From the sequence record PV292302.1: 64,000 bases of DNA; one strand, given 5' to 3'. Source of the stretch: Escherichia phage Jgk1. The notes under the pieces are model-generated. The model saw only the letters and a program-made list of their open reading frames with translations. It was not told where the DNA came from and made no database searches. Positions 1 through 7,110 of this stretch are shown piece after piece. Both the position numbers and the translations under genes were made by a program. The first letter of the stretch is position 1. Every line of letters starts with the position of its first letter.

Positions 1-401
1 GTGGCAGGGGCTACACCCTTACACTATGACTACCCCCCCGGTATGTCACTAGTCGGTGTACTACCCTACCCCACCTTACACGTTACACATGCTCCGCATG
101 TTATGGACATGTCGTCCTATCACTTAACATTGGAGCTATCAGCATGACTACTACTGCTAACGTACGTATGACCGTAGGAACTTTACTCGGTACAGTTAAT
201 GGAGCAGCAACTACTGTTGCAGATACATTTGATACAGCAACTAAAGCCATTGGTATGGCTAACCTGTATGTATCTACTATGGCAGACAAGCAACGTATTC
301 GTACTAAGCTTGAAATGCATACCTTCGTTAACAAATTAGCTGAAGAAACAGCTATGGTAGAAACTCTTCGTAAGAAGAATATCGAAGAATTCTGCAAAGA
401 T
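1..401 (+). repeat. Direct repeat copy 1 (identical to 501-901)
   Basis: Read directly: 1-401 matches 501-901 base for base; divergence begins at 402 vs 902. Confidence 0.9.
87..101 (+). promoter_or_regulatory. N4-type vRNAP early promoter hairpin (6-bp stem, TCC loop; GGA on template strand)
   Basis: acatgc-tcc-gcatgt inverted repeat ~40 nt upstream of ORF 144; same architecture recurs 5 more times. Confidence 0.45.
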
Positions 402-428
402 TCCTCGCCCCTAGTACCTCCTATTTAA
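144..428 (+). CDS. Hypothetical early protein, duplicated gene copy 1 (94 aa, divergent C-terminus)
   Basis: ORF with GGAGC RBS 6 nt upstream; first 86 codons identical to ORF 644-967. Confidence 0.45.
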   Translation: MTTTANVRMTVGTLLGTVNGAATTVADTFDTATKAIGMANLYVSTMADKQRIRTKLEMHTFVNKLAEETAMVETLRKKNIEEFCKDSSPLVPPI

Positions 429-500
429 CTGCTTATAAAGAGTAATCCTGCAATATTTTTGCATACGGAAATGCTGATAGCTATGTACGAGTGCAGTGGT

Positions 501-901
501 GTGGCAGGGGCTACACCCTTACACTATGACTACCCCCCCGGTATGTCACTAGTCGGTGTACTACCCTACCCCACCTTACACGTTACACATGCTCCGCATG
601 TTATGGACATGTCGTCCTATCACTTAACATTGGAGCTATCAGCATGACTACTACTGCTAACGTACGTATGACCGTAGGAACTTTACTCGGTACAGTTAAT
701 GGAGCAGCAACTACTGTTGCAGATACATTTGATACAGCAACTAAAGCCATTGGTATGGCTAACCTGTATGTATCTACTATGGCAGACAAGCAACGTATTC
801 GTACTAAGCTTGAAATGCATACCTTCGTTAACAAATTAGCTGAAGAAACAGCTATGGTAGAAACTCTTCGTAAGAAGAATATCGAAGAATTCTGCAAAGA
901 T
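501..901 (+). repeat. Direct repeat copy 2 (identical to 1-401)
   Basis: Perfect identity to 1-401. Confidence 0.9.
587..601 (+). promoter_or_regulatory. N4-type vRNAP early promoter hairpin (duplicate of 87-101)
   Basis: Same hairpin inside repeat copy 2. Confidence 0.45.
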
Positions 902-967
902 GAGCAGAACGCTACTATCTATAACGCAGAATATGACAAGATTATCAACATCCTGTCTAAAAACTAA
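644..967 (+). CDS. Hypothetical early protein, duplicated gene copy 2 (107 aa)
   Basis: ORF with RBS; followed by hairpin gaatcccc-agaaa-tggggattc at 968-995. Confidence 0.5.
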   Translation: MTTTANVRMTVGTLLGTVNGAATTVADTFDTATKAIGMANLYVSTMADKQRIRTKLEMHTFVNKLAEETAMVETLRKKNIEEFCKDEQNATIYNAEYDKIINILSKN

Positions 968-1063
968 AACAAGAATCCCCAGAAATGGGGATTCAAAAAT
1001 TCATTAGATAGATAGTCTAAAAAGTAGATAGTTATTCATAGAAGTTCTACTTCGGAGATAGTT

Positions 1064-1243
1064 ATGTCAATAACAGATTGCAAATCTGAATCACCACAGG
1101 AAGCTTTAGAAAAGTTCGCAGAAGCTACTGCAAATCGTGCATTAGGTTCTGTCGGTATGGCTTATGAAACTCCTCAAAAACTTGAAGAAGAGTATCAGAA
1201 AGCTAAGCAAGAAGTTCTAACCTGGATGTCTTACATCCCTTAA
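1064..1243 (+). CDS. Small hypothetical early protein (59 aa)
   Basis: ATG at 1064 with GGAGA RBS ~6 nt upstream, TAA at 1241; below the track length cutoff. Confidence 0.35.
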   Translation: MSITDCKSESPQEALEKFAEATANRALGSVGMAYETPQKLEEEYQKAKQEVLTWMSYIP

Positions 1244-1258
1244 AGAAGCTCCGCTTCT
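1244..1258 (+). promoter_or_regulatory. N4-type vRNAP early promoter hairpin (agaagc-tcc-gcttct)
   Basis: 6-bp stem, 3-nt TCC loop, followed by atcgg; ~33 nt upstream of ORF 1291. Confidence 0.5.
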
Positions 1259-1290
1259 ATCGGTTATCCTTTTAATTCAGGAGTTTACTC

Positions 1291-1551
1291 ATGCAATTCA
1301 ATACTGACTTATTCTATGTAGATAGTCGTACTCAATTTGGTAGCTTTGCACAATCAAGCAATTCTGAATGGCAATTATGGTTCTCGGAAAAGAACCTTAA
1401 CTACAAGAATCCTGCTGTTATTGAACACAGATTTCCTGTAAAGCCTACCAAGCGCCAGGTACGTAAGCTGCGTCGTGCATTCCGTAAAGAATATCAAAAC
1501 AGCTTAGCTGAGTTCTTTGCTAAAGAAGGCTCAGCAGCTATGTATTGGTAA
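1291..1551 (+). CDS. Hypothetical early protein (86 aa) with basic KPTKRQVRKLRR motif
   Basis: ORF with AGGAG RBS; shares motif with ORF 2474-2662. Confidence 0.55.
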   Translation: MQFNTDLFYVDSRTQFGSFAQSSNSEWQLWFSEKNLNYKNPAVIEHRFPVKPTKRQVRKLRRAFRKEYQNSLAEFFAKEGSAAMYW

Positions 1552-1560
1552 ACCAAAACC

Positions 1561-1575
1561 AGACGCTCCGCGTCT
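1561..1575 (+). promoter_or_regulatory. N4-type vRNAP early promoter hairpin (agacgc-tcc-gcgtct)
   Basis: 6-bp stem, TCC loop, followed by aaagg; ~27 nt upstream of ORF 1602. Confidence 0.5.
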
Positions 1576-1601
1576 AAAGGATTCAATAACCGGAGAGTAT
1601 T

Positions 1602-1817
1602 ATGAAAGCTTTTAGAGATGTAGCCGATGGGGAAGTTTACTTCGTTAGAGGTGGCTTTGAGCTAGTTCGTGTAAATGAAAGTAGCGACTATAACTCTGTG
1701 CTAGTAGAAGATTCATCAATTGGGGTAAAACAACCAGATGATGAACCTACCTTCAGTTCTATGGATGAACTGAAAGCTGCCTATCCCGAAGATAGTGAAG
1801 CAGTGGAAATCTTTTAA
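1602..1817 (+). CDS. Hypothetical early protein (71 aa, acidic)
   Basis: ORF with GGAGAG RBS. Confidence 0.5.
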   Translation: MKAFRDVADGEVYFVRGGFELVRVNESSDYNSVLVEDSSIGVKQPDDEPTFSSMDELKAAYPEDSEAVEIF

Positions 1818-1823
1818 CAACAG

Positions 1824-1838
1824 GGCTGCTCCGCAGCC
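1824..1838 (+). promoter_or_regulatory. N4-type vRNAP early promoter hairpin (ggctgc-tcc-gcagcc)
   Basis: 6-bp stem, TCC loop, followed by tttgg. Confidence 0.5.
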
Positions 1839-1946
1839 TTTGGATGATTTATGCATCCACTAATCATTGAACTTTTATCCTTTTGTTTGGGTTTCCTCAC
1901 CGACGAGGTTACTCGCAAATCAAATCATTTATCTGGAGAGTACAAA

Positions 1947-2330
1947 ATGTCTATCGAAAAATTCACCTTTGGTAAAACCAACGCTGCTTCTAACTCTGCT
2001 GCTAAAGCTGATAAGCCTAAAGCACAGTTCTGGCTGAACATTGGCTATGTAGCTAATGAAGGCACAGAAGATGCTAAATTCATCAGTCTGCCTACTGGTA
2101 TCCCACTGGATACTCAGGAGCCATTGCCTACTAACAGTAGCAATGAAGACTTCCGTGCTATGCGTTCAGCACAGAATGACCTTCTGGCACAACTCATTGA
2201 GTTTGCTGAAGGTCTGGAACCAGGTGCTGAAGGTATCATTCAGCTTCAGGTTCAACTACGTCGTGTCAAAGCTCCTGCTGAAGAAATCAAGCCGGACGAG
2301 AATAAATATGCACGTAAGCTGACTTTCTAA
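1947..2330 (+). CDS. Hypothetical early protein (127 aa)
   Basis: Internal ATG of track ORF 1851-2330 with GGAGAG RBS; terminator follows. Confidence 0.5.
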
Positions 2331-2339
2331 TCAGCACAT

Positions 2340-2368
2340 GGACTCCCTTCGGGGAGTCCTTTTATTTT
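2340..2368 (+). terminator. Rho-independent terminator
   Basis: ggactccc-ttcg-gggagtcc hairpin followed by T-run. Confidence 0.7.
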
Positions 2369-2473
2369 AACTCGACGATAAACTAAGTTTAACTTTTAGG
2401 TCCTTTTCGACGAAGAGGTACTAAAACTCAAACACAGTTAATTAGACATATCTTAGAAGAAGGAATAACCAAG

Positions 2474-2662
2474 ATGCGTATAGTATGTAATCGCTTTAAT
2501 GCACAAAGAACTATTGAGCTGGTTAAGCCATACGGTGCAAACATGAGTATGGAATCTCGTTGGCAGGTGTCATTAGTAGACAGACGTCAACGTCATTATG
2601 ACCACTTCTTTGTAGCTAAACCTACTCGTAAACAAATTCGTAAACTTCGTAAAGGTCACTAA
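2474..2662 (+). CDS. Hypothetical protein (62 aa) with basic KPTRKQIRKLRK motif, paralog of 1291-1551 C-terminus
   Basis: ORF with GAAGGA RBS; motif shared with ORF 1291. Confidence 0.5.
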   Translation: MRIVCNRFNAQRTIELVKPYGANMSMESRWQVSLVDRRQRHYDHFFVAKPTRKQIRKLRKGH

Positions 2663-2664
2663 TC

Positions 2665-2856
2665 ATGAACAACGAACCTATGCCTCTCATTGGTAAAGTA
2701 ATACTTACAGTATTAGCTGTAATTGTGATTGCAGCAGTGTTCCTGACACTCGGTCCATTGGGTGGCATTGGGTTCTTTGCTTTTGCTGCTATCTCTGTGT
2801 TAAACCGTAGTCCACGTAGCAATGCTCGTGGACGAGATGAACCAGGTGGATTCTGA
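2665..2856 (+). CDS. Small membrane protein (63 aa)
   Basis: ORF with one long hydrophobic segment. Confidence 0.45.
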   Translation: MNNEPMPLIGKVILTVLAVIVIAAVFLTLGPLGGIGFFAFAAISVLNRSPRSNARGRDEPGGF

Positions 2857-3023
2857 TGAATCATTATCAACGTATGTGGATTAAAGCATATCAGGATTAC
2901 CTGGGTGCTGCTAAAGCCACTGCTGAAAAACGAGGGGAAGTACTTCATACAACTGAGGTATTTATGGCCCGTAAACATGCTGATGCAGTGACTAATTCAC
3001 TGAAGGAGCTTGAAAATGCGTAA
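2856..3023 (+). CDS. Small hypothetical protein (55 aa)
   Basis: ATG overlapping upstream stop (TGATG); in-frame to TAA 3021-3023; below track cutoff. Confidence 0.3.
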   Translation: MNHYQRMWIKAYQDYLGAAKATAEKRGEVLHTTEVFMARKHADAVTNSLKELENA

Positions 3024-3177
3024 ATCATTAATCATGGGAACCAGAGAAGATGTTATTAAGCGTCGTGCTAAACAAGCTACTGCTCAATCAATGCCTGTTA
3101 CTGGTAGTAGCAGAACATATAACATTAAGCCTAAGCAGTATATCGTAACCTTCAACCATCCAATCTTAGGAAACTAA
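3016..3177 (+). CDS. Small hypothetical protein (53 aa)
   Basis: ATG at 3016 overlapping previous ORF end; stop abuts ATG of ORF 3179. Confidence 0.3.
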   Translation: MRKSLIMGTREDVIKRRAKQATAQSMPVTGSSRTYNIKPKQYIVTFNHPILGN

Positions 3178-3178
3178 T

Positions 3179-3391
3179 ATGTACTTTATTATCTTTGTAA
3201 TGAGCTGGTTTGTAGTTGTATCTGTTAACCATTTTGCATCTTCTGTTGATAAGGGGTTGGTACACAATGGCAAGCACTTTCAACGTGGTATATGGTTGAT
3301 ATTAGCTAATTGTATCAAGGGATTCAATCTGGGTTATACAGTATGGTTTATCTATTACTGTGTAGTTAACTATCTTTATCAACTACTATGA
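3179..3391 (+). CDS. Small membrane protein (70 aa)
   Basis: ORF with two hydrophobic segments. Confidence 0.4.
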   Translation: MYFIIFVMSWFVVVSVNHFASSVDKGLVHNGKHFQRGIWLILANCIKGFNLGYTVWFIYYCVVNYLYQLL

Positions 3392-3453
3392 ACTGGCCTA
3401 TTAGCATTATCATGCTAGTGCTATTGGGCATTGGTGCACTACAACAACTAGGG

Positions 3454-3480
3454 GTCCTCTAAGGAGGACTTCTATTTTTT
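3454..3480 (+). terminator. Rho-independent terminator
   Basis: gtcctc/gaggac hairpin followed by tctatttttt. Confidence 0.6.
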
Positions 3481-3525
3481 ATTCCGAATAGTTAGACATA
3501 GATAGATATTGGAGAAACTATTAAA

Positions 3526-3834
3526 TTGTTAAATGAAATCATTTGTATCCCTCAGCATAAAGCACATATTGCAGAAAGGAATATTCGTATTCATCTGCCT
3601 ATGCCTTTATGTAATCCATTTCAGCGTAATGAGAGATTGAGCCAGGAGGATGTATCAGTAGCTTATGAAGCTTATCTGAAGAACAGACTCATTAATGGTG
3701 ACAAGCTCATCACTGCTGAGATGGAGAAGATAGCTAGCCTTGTCATGGACAAGACTGGTAAACCTGTTGGCCTTATTGGTGATGAACCAGAAGTCAACGT
3801 AATCCGTAGTTTAATATTAGAGGCAATCGGATAA
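3526..3834 (+). CDS. Hypothetical protein (102 aa), probable TTG start
   Basis: Track ORF begins at a TTG codon; GGAGA ~11 nt upstream; stop overlaps next ATG. Confidence 0.4.
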   Translation: MLNEIICIPQHKAHIAERNIRIHLPMPLCNPFQRNERLSQEDVSVAYEAYLKNRLINGDKLITAEMEKIASLVMDKTGKPVGLIGDEPEVNVIRSLILEAIG

Positions 3835-4058
3835 TGTTATACAACACTGATTATGGACTATGCCCAATCTGCAACAAACGGAAAGGAGTTGCCAAACATA
3901 ATAAGTGTTCTCGTATTCTTCAGAAGCGTAGAAATAAAGAAGAGTGGGATAACACTCTTAATTCACAGCGTGAGTACGAGAATAAGAGGACTGCTCGTAA
4001 AGCATCAACTCAGCTTATTCGTCGTAAAAATCACATTGAAGGATATCAGGGGGAATAA
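3834..4058 (+). CDS. Small Cys-containing basic protein (74 aa), zinc-ribbon-like CPICNKR...KC
   Basis: ORF; CxxC...C pattern plus Arg/Lys-rich tail. Confidence 0.45.
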   Translation: MLYNTDYGLCPICNKRKGVAKHNKCSRILQKRRNKEEWDNTLNSQREYENKRTARKASTQLIRRKNHIEGYQGE

Positions 4059-4342
4059 TGAAAGTTATCACCTATCCTACTCACAAAATAGCACTCTATC
4101 TTAATCAAAAAGTAGAAGTGCCATTATGGGTTAAATATATTGCAGCCTATCCTATGACGTATGGAAGTAGTAGTTCTGCATTAATTGGCTTTAGCCATAA
4201 ACCCAAATTCACTAAGACTGGTATCTGGAAAATACCACCTCAGCATAAGAAAAGTAGGCAGGAACAAATAGGTATTATCCGTGGATTTGCACCTGCTCGT
4301 AATGAAATTGAAGCTACTCTAAGTGAGGTTCTAATACCATGA
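4058..4342 (+). CDS. Hypothetical protein (94 aa)
   Basis: ORF in operon with translationally coupled neighbours. Confidence 0.45.
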   Translation: MKVITYPTHKIALYLNQKVEVPLWVKYIAAYPMTYGSSSSALIGFSHKPKFTKTGIWKIPPQHKKSRQEQIGIIRGFAPARNEIEATLSEVLIP

Positions 4343-4653
4343 CTACTATCGTAGTTCTGCATGACACCACATTCAAAGATGTGGATAAGATGATGAATAA
4401 CATAGACTATGTTGCTCAGCATTCTAAAGCATTCAATGGAGAGTTTACTCTCTATTGTGAACCAGAGTCACCATTGGCTCCTATACTTGAGGCTTCCGGT
4501 CTTCCGTTCAGTACTACTGACTTTCCAAAGGAACCTGACTTCGTTATCTCATCCATCTACGACTTACATGATGGTTCTAAAGCCAGTGAACTGGCAATGA
4601 ACCAGTGGAAATCTCGTCGTCCTGTATGGCCTTTTCAGGTGCTGAAACCATGA
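4339..4653 (+). CDS. Hypothetical protein (104 aa)
   Basis: ORF; start overlaps upstream stop. Confidence 0.45.
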   Translation: MTTIVVLHDTTFKDVDKMMNNIDYVAQHSKAFNGEFTLYCEPESPLAPILEASGLPFSTTDFPKEPDFVISSIYDLHDGSKASELAMNQWKSRRPVWPFQVLKP

Positions 4654-4892
4654 CCTATGAAGAATATTATGTATTTAAAAAGGGAGATGATTTTATAGCT
4701 ATGCCTGATGATTACAGAGATTGGCATACAACTTCTGTATTAAGTGAAGCATTTTCCGTACCTAACCTCGAAGAGGTTAATAGAGTAATGAACGGAGTAA
4801 TGCTAACTAGAGGGCTAGCTTACAAAATAGACGCATTAGAAGGAACTTCTGTATGCAAAGTCGTTACATCCATTGAGGTACTGAAACCATGA
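4650..4892 (+). CDS. Hypothetical protein (80 aa)
   Basis: Internal ATG of track ORF 4605-4892 overlapping upstream stop (ATGA). Confidence 0.4.
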   Translation: MTYEEYYVFKKGDDFIAMPDDYRDWHTTSVLSEAFSVPNLEEVNRVMNGVMLTRGLAYKIDALEGTSVCKVVTSIEVLKP

Positions 4893-5272
4893 AGATAAGC
4901 TCATTAGGTGATAACACCAATGCCTTATACGGTGTAGCTGCATGTCCAATTATTATTGTCAATAAACATCACAGTAAATCTGGTGAGTATATTGGGCGTG
5001 GCTCACCATTAGGTAATCCATTCATCATTGGTACGCATGGCGACCGTGAACAGGTAATTGCTAAATATGCTATGTGGTTACAAGAGCAGATTGATAAAAA
5101 CAATCCTGTTGTACTAAAAGAACTTAATCGTCTGGGTAATAAAGCCATTGACGAGAAAGGGTTAGCCTTACAGTGTTTCTGTTATCCGAAACCATGTCAT
5201 GGTGAGGTTATTAAAGAGAAGCTCGTAAAGGCTATGTACAAATACTTTGAGGAGCATCCAAATGGCATTTGA
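4889..5272 (+). CDS. Hypothetical protein (127 aa) with GRGSPLGNPF motif
   Basis: ORF; motif read in translation; family recalled only tentatively (DUF4326-like). Confidence 0.45.
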   Translation: MKISSLGDNTNALYGVAACPIIIVNKHHSKSGEYIGRGSPLGNPFIIGTHGDREQVIAKYAMWLQEQIDKNNPVVLKELNRLGNKAIDEKGLALQCFCYPKPCHGEVIKEKLVKAMYKYFEEHPNGI

Positions 5273-5594
5273 AGACATTAATCACCCATCACTATGGGGC
5301 ATTCAGCATATACCATCAGGTAAGTTGCTGAGGCAGTTTAATCATGGTTATGGTCATACACAGCTAGATGTGGAAGATGACCCACTGCACCCAAGAGTAC
5401 AACGTGGGATTGTATTATCACCTCGCCTATTTACTAGTGAAGACACAGCTAAACGTGCACTCATTCAGTGGCTACAAGGAGTTCATCGTAATGAATGGGA
5501 AGATGGACTGTATGTATATAACCCAGAAGTTCCTCGTATTAAAGAGGAGTTCAAAGTAATTCCTGTTTATTTGTATACCGACCAGAAGGAGTAA
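5262..5594 (+). CDS. Hypothetical protein (110 aa)
   Basis: Internal ATG of track ORF 5247-5594. Confidence 0.4.
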   Translation: MAFEDINHPSLWGIQHIPSGKLLRQFNHGYGHTQLDVEDDPLHPRVQRGIVLSPRLFTSEDTAKRALIQWLQGVHRNEWEDGLYVYNPEVPRIKEEFKVIPVYLYTDQKE

Positions 5595-5598
5595 CTGT

Positions 5599-5784
5599 AT
5601 GTCTAAGCAATGTAAGTGTGGTAAAGGCTACGTATCACTTTGGGATAACAAATGTGGTAAATGCCGAACCAAGAAGGAACAGAAAGACCATGAATATGCT
5701 CTTGACTGTGTATCCGAATGTCAGTGTGAGTCACAAGCTGATGCTATTAACTTTTACAAAGAAGTAAGGAATCATTGCAAATGA
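5599..5784 (+). CDS. Small Cys-rich protein (61 aa), zinc-ribbon-like
   Basis: CKCGK...CGKC...C..C.C pattern. Confidence 0.45.
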   Translation: MSKQCKCGKGYVSLWDNKCGKCRTKKEQKDHEYALDCVSECQCESQADAINFYKEVRNHCK

Positions 5785-6164
5785 AAGAAATCTTCGTATT
5801 CGGTTCTAACCTGGCTGGTATACATGGTGCTGGTGCAGCTAAGACTGCATATAAGAAACATGGTGCTCGTTGGGGAATGGGTGTAGGCCATTATGGTTGC
5901 AGCTATGCAATCCCAACCAAAGACCAGAACATCAAGACAATGAAACGTAGCGATATTGAGACATTCGTTGCAGGCTTTATTCTATATGCTGCTTCTCATC
6001 CAGAGTGGGACTTTAAAGTAACACGTATTGGATGTGATTTAGCTGGCTTCACTGATGCAGAAATGGCAGTACTGTTTGTTACAGCTACTGGAAACGTACT
6101 ATTCGATGAGGCATGGAAACCATACCTGGGTGATACCTATAACTATTGGGGAACATTCTCATGA
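5775..6164 (+). CDS. Hypothetical protein (129 aa) with Gly-rich FGSNLAGIHGAGAA motif, Rossmann-like
   Basis: ORF; Gly-rich loop near N-terminus; family unresolved. Confidence 0.45.
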   Translation: MQMKEIFVFGSNLAGIHGAGAAKTAYKKHGARWGMGVGHYGCSYAIPTKDQNIKTMKRSDIETFVAGFILYAASHPEWDFKVTRIGCDLAGFTDAEMAVLFVTATGNVLFDEAWKPYLGDTYNYWGTFS

Positions 6165-6246
6165 AAGAACTAGCTTACTTAATAGTCCTATGGGCTATCG
6201 GAGGAAGCATTGTATGGACACTCTCAGATTTACTTCTTAAGTAAAT

Positions 6247-6261
6247 AGCTGCTCCGCAGCT
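6247..6261 (+). promoter_or_regulatory. N4-type vRNAP early promoter hairpin (agctgc-tcc-gcagct)
   Basis: 6-bp stem, TCC loop, followed by tttcgg; ~30 nt upstream of ORF 6292. Confidence 0.5.
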
Positions 6262-6291
6262 TTCGGTAATTAATTAACTAGGAGATATGCG

Positions 6292-7110
6292 ATGTACTCA
6301 TCTATTGAACATCAGAAGCAACTGGAAACTCTGTTTAACAAGAATCAACTAATTCCTCGTATGAGGAAAGAGTTCGAAGACTCCAAAGACGTAGACTTTA
6401 AGGCATTTGCCGAGTATCTGGACATTGATTATAAGTTGCTCATTGATGCAATGGTTCAGATGGCACTACATAAACGTGCCGACCTGCCTACCTTAGTTGG
6501 CTCTCTTATGAGCCACAGTCATGACGCTCAGTATATTGCTGATTGTCTGTTGAAAATGGCAGAAAACGACTGCTTCAACTTTGACCCAAGCATTGACAAG
6601 TTCATCGTGCTGTATGGCATCAGTGAAGATGTACAGCTTGAGTTAGAAGCATTCCAGTATCCACTGCCTATCGTCAGTAAACCTAAGCCTGTACGGGATA
6701 ACCGTGACACAGGCTATTGGAATACTAAAGGCAGCATCATCCTCAAGAAGAATCACCATGAAATGGATGTCTGTCTTGACCACATCAACCGTATGAACAG
6801 TCAGCGACTGTGCATTAACTGGAAAGTAGCTAAGTTCGTTAAGAACTCCTGGGCTAACCTGGATAAACCTAAAGAAGGTGAAACCCGTCAGGACTTCGAG
6901 AAACGTGTACGTGCATTCGAAAAGTATGACCGTACAGCTAAAGACGTAATGGAGCTAGTGACTAAAGAAGGTAATAACTTCTCACTAGCTCATAAGTATG
7001 ACAAGCGTGGGCGTACTTACTCACAGGGTTATCACATCAACTATCAGGGAACCAGTTGGAACAAGGCTGTAATAGAGTTCGCTGATAAGGAGTTAGTAAA
7101 CGATGCGTAA
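6292..7110 (+). CDS. Phage RNA polymerase II small subunit (N4 gp15-like)
   Basis: 272 aa, directly upstream of the T7-like RNAP catalytic subunit gene; N4 gene order 15-16-17. Confidence 0.5.
   Translation: MYSSIEHQKQLETLFNKNQLIPRMRKEFEDSKDVDFKAFAEYLDIDYKLLIDAMVQMALHKRADLPTLVGSLMSHSHDAQYIADCLLKMAENDCFNFDPSIDKFIVLYGISEDVQLELEAFQYPLPIVSKPKPVRDNRDTGYWNTKGSIILKKNHHEMDVCLDHINRMNSQRLCINWKVAKFVKNSWANLDKPKEGETRQDFEKRVRAFEKYDRTAKDVMELVTKEGNNFSLAHKYDKRGRTYSQGYHINYQGTSWNKAVIEFADKELVNDA

Follow-up and report, generated by a model that had tools for sequence, protein, structure and literature searches.

Two probable TifA-family paralogs with a shared basic helix in the early region of Escherichia phage Jgk1

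Two small basic proteins and their shared motif

In this study, we analyzed a 64,000-nucleotide stretch of Escherichia phage Jgk1 (sequence record PV292302.1), referred to here as the window, with a focus on two small open reading frames (ORFs) near its left end, ORF1 and ORF2. A first-pass annotation had reported a common basic motif in them. Both ORFs were confirmed with the peptides it quoted, stop codons included. The two genes and their motifs are as follows:

1291..1551, + strand: ORF1, 86 amino acids, assigned to the TifA family (Pfam DUF7279) as paralog 1, with an AGGAG ribosome-binding site about 8 nucleotides upstream
2474..2662, + strand: ORF2, 62 amino acids, assigned to the TifA family (Pfam DUF7279) as paralog 2, a minimal form with a short helix
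1441..1488, + strand: ORF1 K51-K66, Pro-Thr helix cap and basic amphipathic helix KPTKRQVRKLRRAFRK, a putative RNA-binding surface
2618..2653, + strand: ORF2 K49-K60, Pro-Thr cap and basic helix KPTRKQIRKLRK

Two features back the start codon of ORF2: the N-terminus is conserved (MRxxCNR(F/Y)N), and Klebsiella phage KP8 has kept the AAGGA ribosome-binding site. The motif itself is real. Six-frame translation of the window gave exactly two occurrences of KPT[KR][KR]Q[VIL]RKLR and looser variants, at 1441-1473 and 2618-2650.

The two carriers had been described as otherwise different proteins, and this part of the first-pass annotation does not hold. ORF1 and ORF2 are homologous over about 42 residues (BLASTP E=1e-6, 33% identity over 42 residues; 31% identity in a multiple alignment). 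The aligned stretch takes in a Trp strand upstream of the motif, EWQLWF in ORF1 (W27) and RWQVSLV in ORF2 (W30), and the two proteins share a predicted fold. Both are very basic, with isoelectric points of 9.9 and 11.5. In the DNA under the motif, 20 of 36 nucleotides are identical and 3 of 12 third codon positions are shared. These values indicate an old similarity that is kept at the protein level, rather than a repeated DNA element.

Assignment to the TifA family

Both ORFs match the Pfam model PF23945 (DUF7279) above its gathering score of 24.5 bits, ORF1 with 55.3 bits and ORF2 with 38.0 bits. The same model is matched by T4 gp61.4 (72.7 bits) and by JS98 gp61.4, Moogle gp4 and G7C gp2.2. 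The link with TifA came from the annotation of JS98 gp61.4, which notes its similarity to T4 gp61.4. The translation of T4 gene 61.4 contains the elements ...WELVL...FKFAVRPTKRQIRQCKRYFRK... in this order. The gene was given its new name tifA, short for ToxN inhibitory factor A, in the work of Srikant, Guegler and Laub, and T4 was found to escape the type III toxin-antitoxin abortive-infection system toxIN through amplification of tifA (eLife 2022, PMC9391042). Judged by these matches, ORF1 and ORF2 are almost certainly two diverged TifA-family paralogs, with T4 gp61.4 as the prototype of the family. The interpretation in the first-pass annotation was essentially correct, paralogy included, but it was made without recognition of the protein family.

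To the PHROG database, ORF1 was assigned as phrog_2375 and ORF2 as phrog_7840 (2.9e-28), both groups of unknown function. All 996 stop-to-stop segments of the window were also searched with a hidden Markov model (HMM) of 99 homologues. The HMM recovered ORF1 and ORF2 only (1.4e-33 and 5.1e-20; the next segment had 0.031), and no third paralog was found among these segments. This profile includes both ORFs, so it is mainly useful to exclude a third copy, and the Pfam model is the independent evidence.

A HMMER search over 1.84 billion cluster representatives returned 44 clusters at E<=1e-3, indicating that the family is small. The best database identity was 78% for ORF1 and 84% for ORF2, and the overall identity of T4 and RB69 TifA to the two ORFs was 24-27%. 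The JS98 protein, with 38% identity, is nearer to ORF1 than T4 TifA is (26%). PADLOC and NCBIfam gave no meaningful matches, and a search for pseudo-toxI-like tandem repeats found none.

Conservation and predicted fold

Guegler et al. (Nucleic Acids Research 2023, PMC10853763) described TifA as a three-stranded sheet with a basic C-terminal helix, in which a conserved Pro-Thr cap is followed by a conserved basic cluster. They also found that the helix is conserved among TifA homologues and that the loops are variable. Our 99 homologues have the same pattern, and cap plus helix is by far the most conserved segment (column entropy of 0.87 bits versus about 2.9 bits in the two loops). The first-pass annotation had proposed an alignment of homologues as a check on the motif, and the motif is conserved in it: in ORF1 numbering no variation occurs at W27, P52, T53 or Q56, and conservation is 93% or higher at K51, R58, K59 and L60. 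Helix positions 57, 60 and 64 (V57, L60 and F64 in ORF1) are conserved as hydrophobic, and positions 51, 54, 55, 58, 59, 62, 65 and 66 as basic. The motif is a predicted amphipathic helix with a basic exposed face.

The cap and cluster consist of P52, T53, K54, R55, R58, K59, R61 and R62 in ORF1, and of P50, T51, R52, K53, R56, K57, R59 and K60 in ORF2. Among 22 ORF2-type sequences, K49, P50, T51, R52, K53 and Q54 are invariant. In the alignment, P53, T54, K55, R56 and R59 of RB69 TifA correspond to P52, T53, K54, R55 and R58 of ORF1 and to P50, T51, R52, K53 and R56 of ORF2. The RB69 residues were mutated in the published work, where the variants P53A/T54A and K55A/R56A/R59A lost RNA binding, ToxN co-precipitation and ToxN neutralization (PMC10853763). 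Synthetic RB69 TifA binds RNA with a dissociation constant of 0.36-2.3 μM, and TifA has a similar affinity for single-stranded and double-stranded DNA in vitro (PMC10853763).

By alignment, the shared motif is the RNA-binding helix of TifA. The first-pass suggestion that both proteins share a module for binding, for example, nucleic acid or a host protein gains support by analogy, since the same Pro-Thr-capped helix in T4 and RB69 TifA binds RNA and is needed for binding and inhibiting ToxN. The conservation of the residues mutated in TifA suggests that ORF1 and ORF2 probably bind RNA as well.

We then compared the folds, prediction against prediction, with AlphaFold2 models built from the family alignment. 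ORF1 was modeled with strands at residues 3-10, 26-33 and 43-48 and a helix at 54-84 (predicted local distance difference test score, pLDDT, 77.5). The ORF2 model (pLDDT 80.1) has strands at 2-8, 29-35 and 41-46, an inserted helix at 11-20 in the first loop and a C-terminal helix at 52-61. Both models have the TifA topology of a three-stranded sheet followed by a C-terminal helix. When the 99-sequence family profile was used to search PDB sequences, no match emerged (best E 9.7), and there is no solved structure in the family. Among viral structure models, the best match of ORF1 was an EcS1 protein of 80 amino acids (probability 1.00; template modeling scores 0.60/0.64). This is most likely the EcS1 TifA homologue of the published screen (PMC10853763). 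For ORF2, the matches were its orthologues and small proteins from other phages of enterobacteria.

A Lys/Arg-rich motif can inflate similarity scores, and the resemblance could in principle be a chance match of low-complexity basic sequence or the translation of a repeated piece of DNA (a promoter or a recombination site, for example). We rejected this explanation, whose probability is practically negligible. Both ORFs pass a curated Pfam threshold, the Trp strand precedes the motif in both, and the same fold is predicted for both. The nucleotide and third-position identities given above argue against a DNA repeat. Across 99 homologues drawn from several phage families, moreover, the Pro, Thr and Gln never vary.

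Distribution of the two types

With tblastn, the ORF2 type turned up at 48-67% identity in 57 phage records, all of N4-like size at about 70-76 kb, and only there. ORF2 is the orthologue of G7C gp2.2 and KP8 AVJ48918. The ORF1 type is patchy, with 108 records. Among the matches listed, these include Mooglevirus (59% identity), phages of about 52 kb from E. coli and Yersinia (ST32, PYps), T4-like Dhakavirus, in which it bears the annotation 61.4, and roughly a dozen phages of N4-like size. G7C and KP8 have no ORF1-type gene in the corresponding slot. In phage N4 itself, the ORF2 type was not found at E<=0.01, and the ORF1 type was not found among the matches listed, which are part of the 108.

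Both types occur together in at least nine further phages of N4-like size (K57alpha1.2, VLCpiP4b, KKP 3715, PE007, As2, IME11, SP5M, K60PH164C1 and JZBo1). ORF1 has 59% identity to Mooglevirus proteins versus 38-54% to most ORF1-type proteins in N4-like-sized records, among the matches listed, and 31% to ORF2. That ORF1 is nearer to Mooglevirus than to most N4-like ORF1-type proteins or ORF2 makes horizontal exchange a likelier origin than recent tandem duplication.

Two DUF7279 genes were also observed in unrelated metagenomic phage contigs of about 76 kb from another lineage (L006, positions 5001-5856, JGI 2228664008; also L007 and L008). The L006 pair encodes proteins of 72 and 86 amino acids, separated by one gene for 105 amino acids, and the second copy is of a third subtype (…VWQVYFS…EFVTKPTRKQIRKARRDF…). 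Such pairs indicate that multiple TifA-family paralogs per genome recur.

Several metagenomic homologues carry extensions (P0077, P0084, P0085 and P0070; P0016, P0017, P0024 and P0029). Some of the ORF2 type end in a CxxC...HxxC zinc ribbon (KCYECGKRIKLGDEFSWDDLNYAHxxC), and P0070 has this module at the N-terminus. Some of the ORF1 type have an extra C-terminal domain of about 90 amino acids (...GRTPHELWEAIQHGAIVCTSIDKHIASLRPADG...). The extensions are either true fusions or read-through into neighboring genes.

Early region of the phage

Positions 1000-3500 of the window have about 80% nucleotide identity to N4-like podophages (Schitoviridae, Enquatrovirinae), for example Klebsiella phage KP8, G7C-like Gamaleyavirus and Shigella phage Moo19. 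Both ORFs are located in the left-end early region of the N4-like layout, where they flank the homologue of N4 gp2. Their other neighbors are the homologue of N4 gp1 and small ORFs without a PHROG function. The features around them are listed here:

86-100, 586-600, 1244-1258, 1559-1576, 1824-1838 and 6249-6261, + strand: six TCC-loop hairpins (GGA on the template strand) with 6-bp stems
1244..1258, + strand: predicted N4-type early (virion RNA polymerase) hairpin promoter AGAAGC-TCC-GCTTCT, 33 nucleotides upstream of ORF1
644-967: N4 gp1 homologue, based on KP8 and G7C annotations
1947-2330: N4 gp2 homologue, based on KP8 and G7C annotations
2340..2369, + strand: intrinsic terminator GGACTCCC-TTCG-GGGAGTCC followed by a T run, 3' of the gp2 homologue and 5' of ORF2, kept in KP8

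The promoter hairpin of the N4 virion RNA polymerase has the form GAAGC-GGA-GCTTC on the template strand, and the hairpins of the window resemble it. The GCTCCGC core occurs six times in the window, always on the + strand and always in the left 6.3 kb (91, 591, 1248, 1565, 1828 and 6251). Each hairpin sits directly upstream of a small ORF, and hairpins of a like GC-TCC-GC form are labeled 'early promoter' in the KP8 record. Four hairpins lie in window positions 586-1840, versus three annotated in the matching part of KP8. From their form and placement, the hairpins are a putative series of single-gene early promoter cassettes.

ORF1 is a single-gene unit bounded by the hairpins at 1244-1258 and 1559-1576. 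ORF2 is downstream of the terminator at 2340-2369, yet between the early promoters at 1828 and 6251. The first-pass annotation had called both proteins early. Predicted early expression is well supported for ORF1 only, by the promoter-like hairpin 33 nucleotides upstream; ORF2 follows a terminator, though inside the early region.

The gap between the terminator and ORF2 (2369-2473) has about 88% identity to KP8, versus about 80% across the surrounding 1000-3500, and a core of about 46 nucleotides is near-invariant, with one mismatch (CGACGATAAACTAAGTTTAACTTTTAGGTCCTTTTCGACGAAGAGG). No Rfam match was found in this gap, its predicted RNA fold is unremarkable (z -1.6), and KP8 carries no annotation there. 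The gap may act as a promoter or regulatory site that serves ORF2 and the downstream genes. An Rfam scan of window positions 1-7000 gave no match.

The gp2 homologue, which recruits N4 RNA polymerase II, raises a second explanation, namely that ORF1 and ORF2 are accessory factors of N4-type transcription that bind single-stranded or hairpin DNA near it. The flanking position of the two genes would fit this role, and so would the restriction of the ORF2 type to N4-like-sized records and the in vitro binding of DNA by TifA about as well as RNA. However, the ORF1 type also occurs in T4-like, Mooglevirus and ~52-kb phages without N4-type polymerases. G7C and KP8 lack the ORF1 type, and neither type was found in N4 (at E<=0.01; for the ORF1 type, among the matches listed), so the proteins appear too dispensable for a core transcription factor. 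We consider this role very unlikely.

Two further observations concern this region. A small acidic ORF of 71 amino acids (1602-1817, phrog_2183) has its own early hairpin promoter and is kept in KP8 (1004-1219); its product is predicted to be a further immediate-early protein without an assigned function. In addition, window positions 1-401 are identical to 501-901, with an offset of exactly 500. Each copy contains an early hairpin promoter and the 5' part of a gp1-like ORF, and the first gp1-like copy (144-428) is truncated, with a different C-terminus. The 99-nucleotide spacer (402-500) matches sequence about 100-500 nucleotides from a record end in related N4-like records. The repeat resembles terminal redundancy or a concatemer junction (a tandem pair of terminal repeats of about 500 nucleotides, of which the window start truncates the first); an assembly artefact would be another explanation.

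Proposed mechanism and alternatives

In the mechanism that we propose, the Pro-Thr pair would cap the helix N-terminus, V/I57, L60 and F64 would face the sheet, and the Lys and Arg residues would line up as a positive stripe exposed to solvent. As homology with T4 and RB69 TifA suggests, this stripe would bind RNA without strong sequence preference, and the variable surface of sheet and loops would contact a host defense protein. The partner of the prototype is the type III toxin-antitoxin endoribonuclease ToxN, which TifA keeps inactive in a ribonucleoprotein complex on an abundant RNA such as 16S ribosomal RNA (rRNA). With the toxin held inactive, the abortive-infection response would spare phage transcripts. 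ORF1, with its own virion-RNA-polymerase hairpin promoter, would appear in the first minutes after infection; in T4, tifA also belongs to the early genes (PMC10853763).

Two features of the family bear on the partner. The helix is kept and the loops are almost wholly different between the two copies, most likely reflecting different partners or partner variants. In addition, the family occurs in enterobacterial phages with unrelated transcription and replication systems (N4-like, T4-like, Mooglevirus and ~52-kb phages), a distribution that favors a host partner over a phage partner.

Taken together, we favor, with modest confidence, a TifA-like RNA-binding counter-defense pair. By analogy with TifA, the case for a counter-defense role against an RNase-type toxin is evenly balanced, and ToxN in particular is a doubtful target. 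Inhibition of E. coli ToxN by ORF1 and ORF2 is perhaps unlikely.

Several results weigh against a counter-defense pair of this kind. In the published screen, ToxN was neutralized only by the T2, T4, T6 and RB69 proteins, and the homologues of JS98, VR7, EcoM_005, EcS1, PM2 and Pectobacterium phage CB4 were inactive against all seven toxins, which comprised six ToxN homologues and TenpN (PMC10853763). The JS98 and CB4 proteins are the tested proteins nearest to ORF1 and ORF2, and both are toxin-inactive. The CB4 homologue was well expressed yet inactive, and so offers no positive functional precedent. The helix of ORF2 is also very short. Finally, hhalign with thin subfamily profiles gave a weak, misaligned match of the ORF2 type to T-even TifA (probability 37%, E 3.5e-4).

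The inactivity of most non-T-even homologues against the tested toxins would also fit a third explanation, in which TifA-fold RNA binders act on host RNA or ribosomes and not on toxins, for example through modulation of translation via bound 16S rRNA or through general protection of phage transcripts against host RNases. The strongly basic character of ORF1 and ORF2 is in line with this, and so are published data on TifA itself: ToxN is trapped by TifA in a large ribonucleoprotein complex enriched in 16S rRNA, the sole RNA strongly enriched, and TifA alone co-purifies with cellular RNA (PMC10853763). However, a variable TifA loop with residue 41 tunes the ToxN interaction, and single ToxN substitutions escape TifA (PMC10853763), which argues against non-specific coating of RNA. 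Fast-evolving loops beside an invariant helix also fit an arms race with a variable protein better than an invariant rRNA. We consider a direct RNA role unlikely.

Returning to the counter-defense pair, a broader version of it is possible but rather doubtful, in which the TifA fold would be a modular 'RNA-glue' counter-defense scaffold that combines an invariant RNA-binding helix with a fast-evolving recognition surface. Paralogs would then be kept since each disables a different host RNase or defense effector, not necessarily ToxN. If this is true, the ORF1 and ORF2 types would be new inhibitor specificities, and the zinc-ribbon and ~90-amino-acid fusions would widen the repertoire.

Comparison with known systems and significance

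TifA (T4 gp61.4, and its RB69, T2 and T6 counterparts) resembles ORF1 and ORF2 in Pfam family, size class (68-85 amino acids versus 62-86 for the two ORFs), predicted sheet and helix, basic isoelectric point and early genomic position. The Pro-Thr cap and the (K/R)(K/R)Q(I/V)R core are identical. The differences lie in the residue-41 specificity loop, which is unrelated in sequence in both ORFs and 6 residues shorter in ORF2, and in the setting, an N4-like early region with two copies per genome. There is no dmd neighbor at ORF1 or ORF2, as would be expected from the T-even anti-toxin-antitoxin island (dmd-tifA-sp-adfA). This synteny is T-even-specific and no defining trait of the protein family.

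The TifA homologue of Pectobacterium phage vB_PatP_CB4, which we take to be N4-like, shares with ORF2 the FVAKPT(S/R)KQ(V/I)R core and the Trp strand (BLASTP E=3e-6). It differs by its length of 93 amino acids, longer loops and a C-terminal tail.

Dmd (T4 gp61.5) is likewise a small early phage protein that neutralizes an RNase toxin (RnlA/LsoA) of abortive-infection toxin-antitoxin systems, and it is co-operonic with tifA in T4. In contrast, it is an antitoxin mimic that acts by direct protein-protein binding without RNA, and it has no sequence relationship to ORF1 or ORF2. HIV-1 Vif and APOBEC3, an analogy drawn by the TifA authors, also use RNA as 'molecular glue' for a viral antagonist that disables a host antiviral enzyme. 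Fold, host and enzyme class are unrelated, and the analogy is mechanistic only.

ORF1 and ORF2 are new divergent members of a described family, and the function of the motif has already been published. Since this role was established experimentally, our finding mainly closes an annotation gap: the family stands in Pfam as DUF7279, in PHROGs as groups of unknown function, and in the related phage records inspected as hypothetical proteins. Our literature search found no paper naming DUF7279 or PF23945, nothing on TifA in Schitoviridae and no work on the TifA mechanism after 2023. The literature searched appears to contain no description of DUF7279 as TifA, of the recurring pairs of paralogs in N4-like phages, or of the minimal ORF2-type form and its zinc-ribbon fusion in some homologues. 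The tree and screen of the TifA authors did include one CB4 homologue (PMC10853763).

N4-like phages often carry two diverged TifA paralogs, of which the ORF2 type is a minimal version of 61-63 amino acids. Since the nearest published homologues inhibit no tested ToxN, ORF1 and ORF2 are good candidates for new targets of the TifA scaffold. They are also relevant to forecasts of the abortive-infection systems that N4-like phages can evade in therapeutic use against Klebsiella and E. coli.

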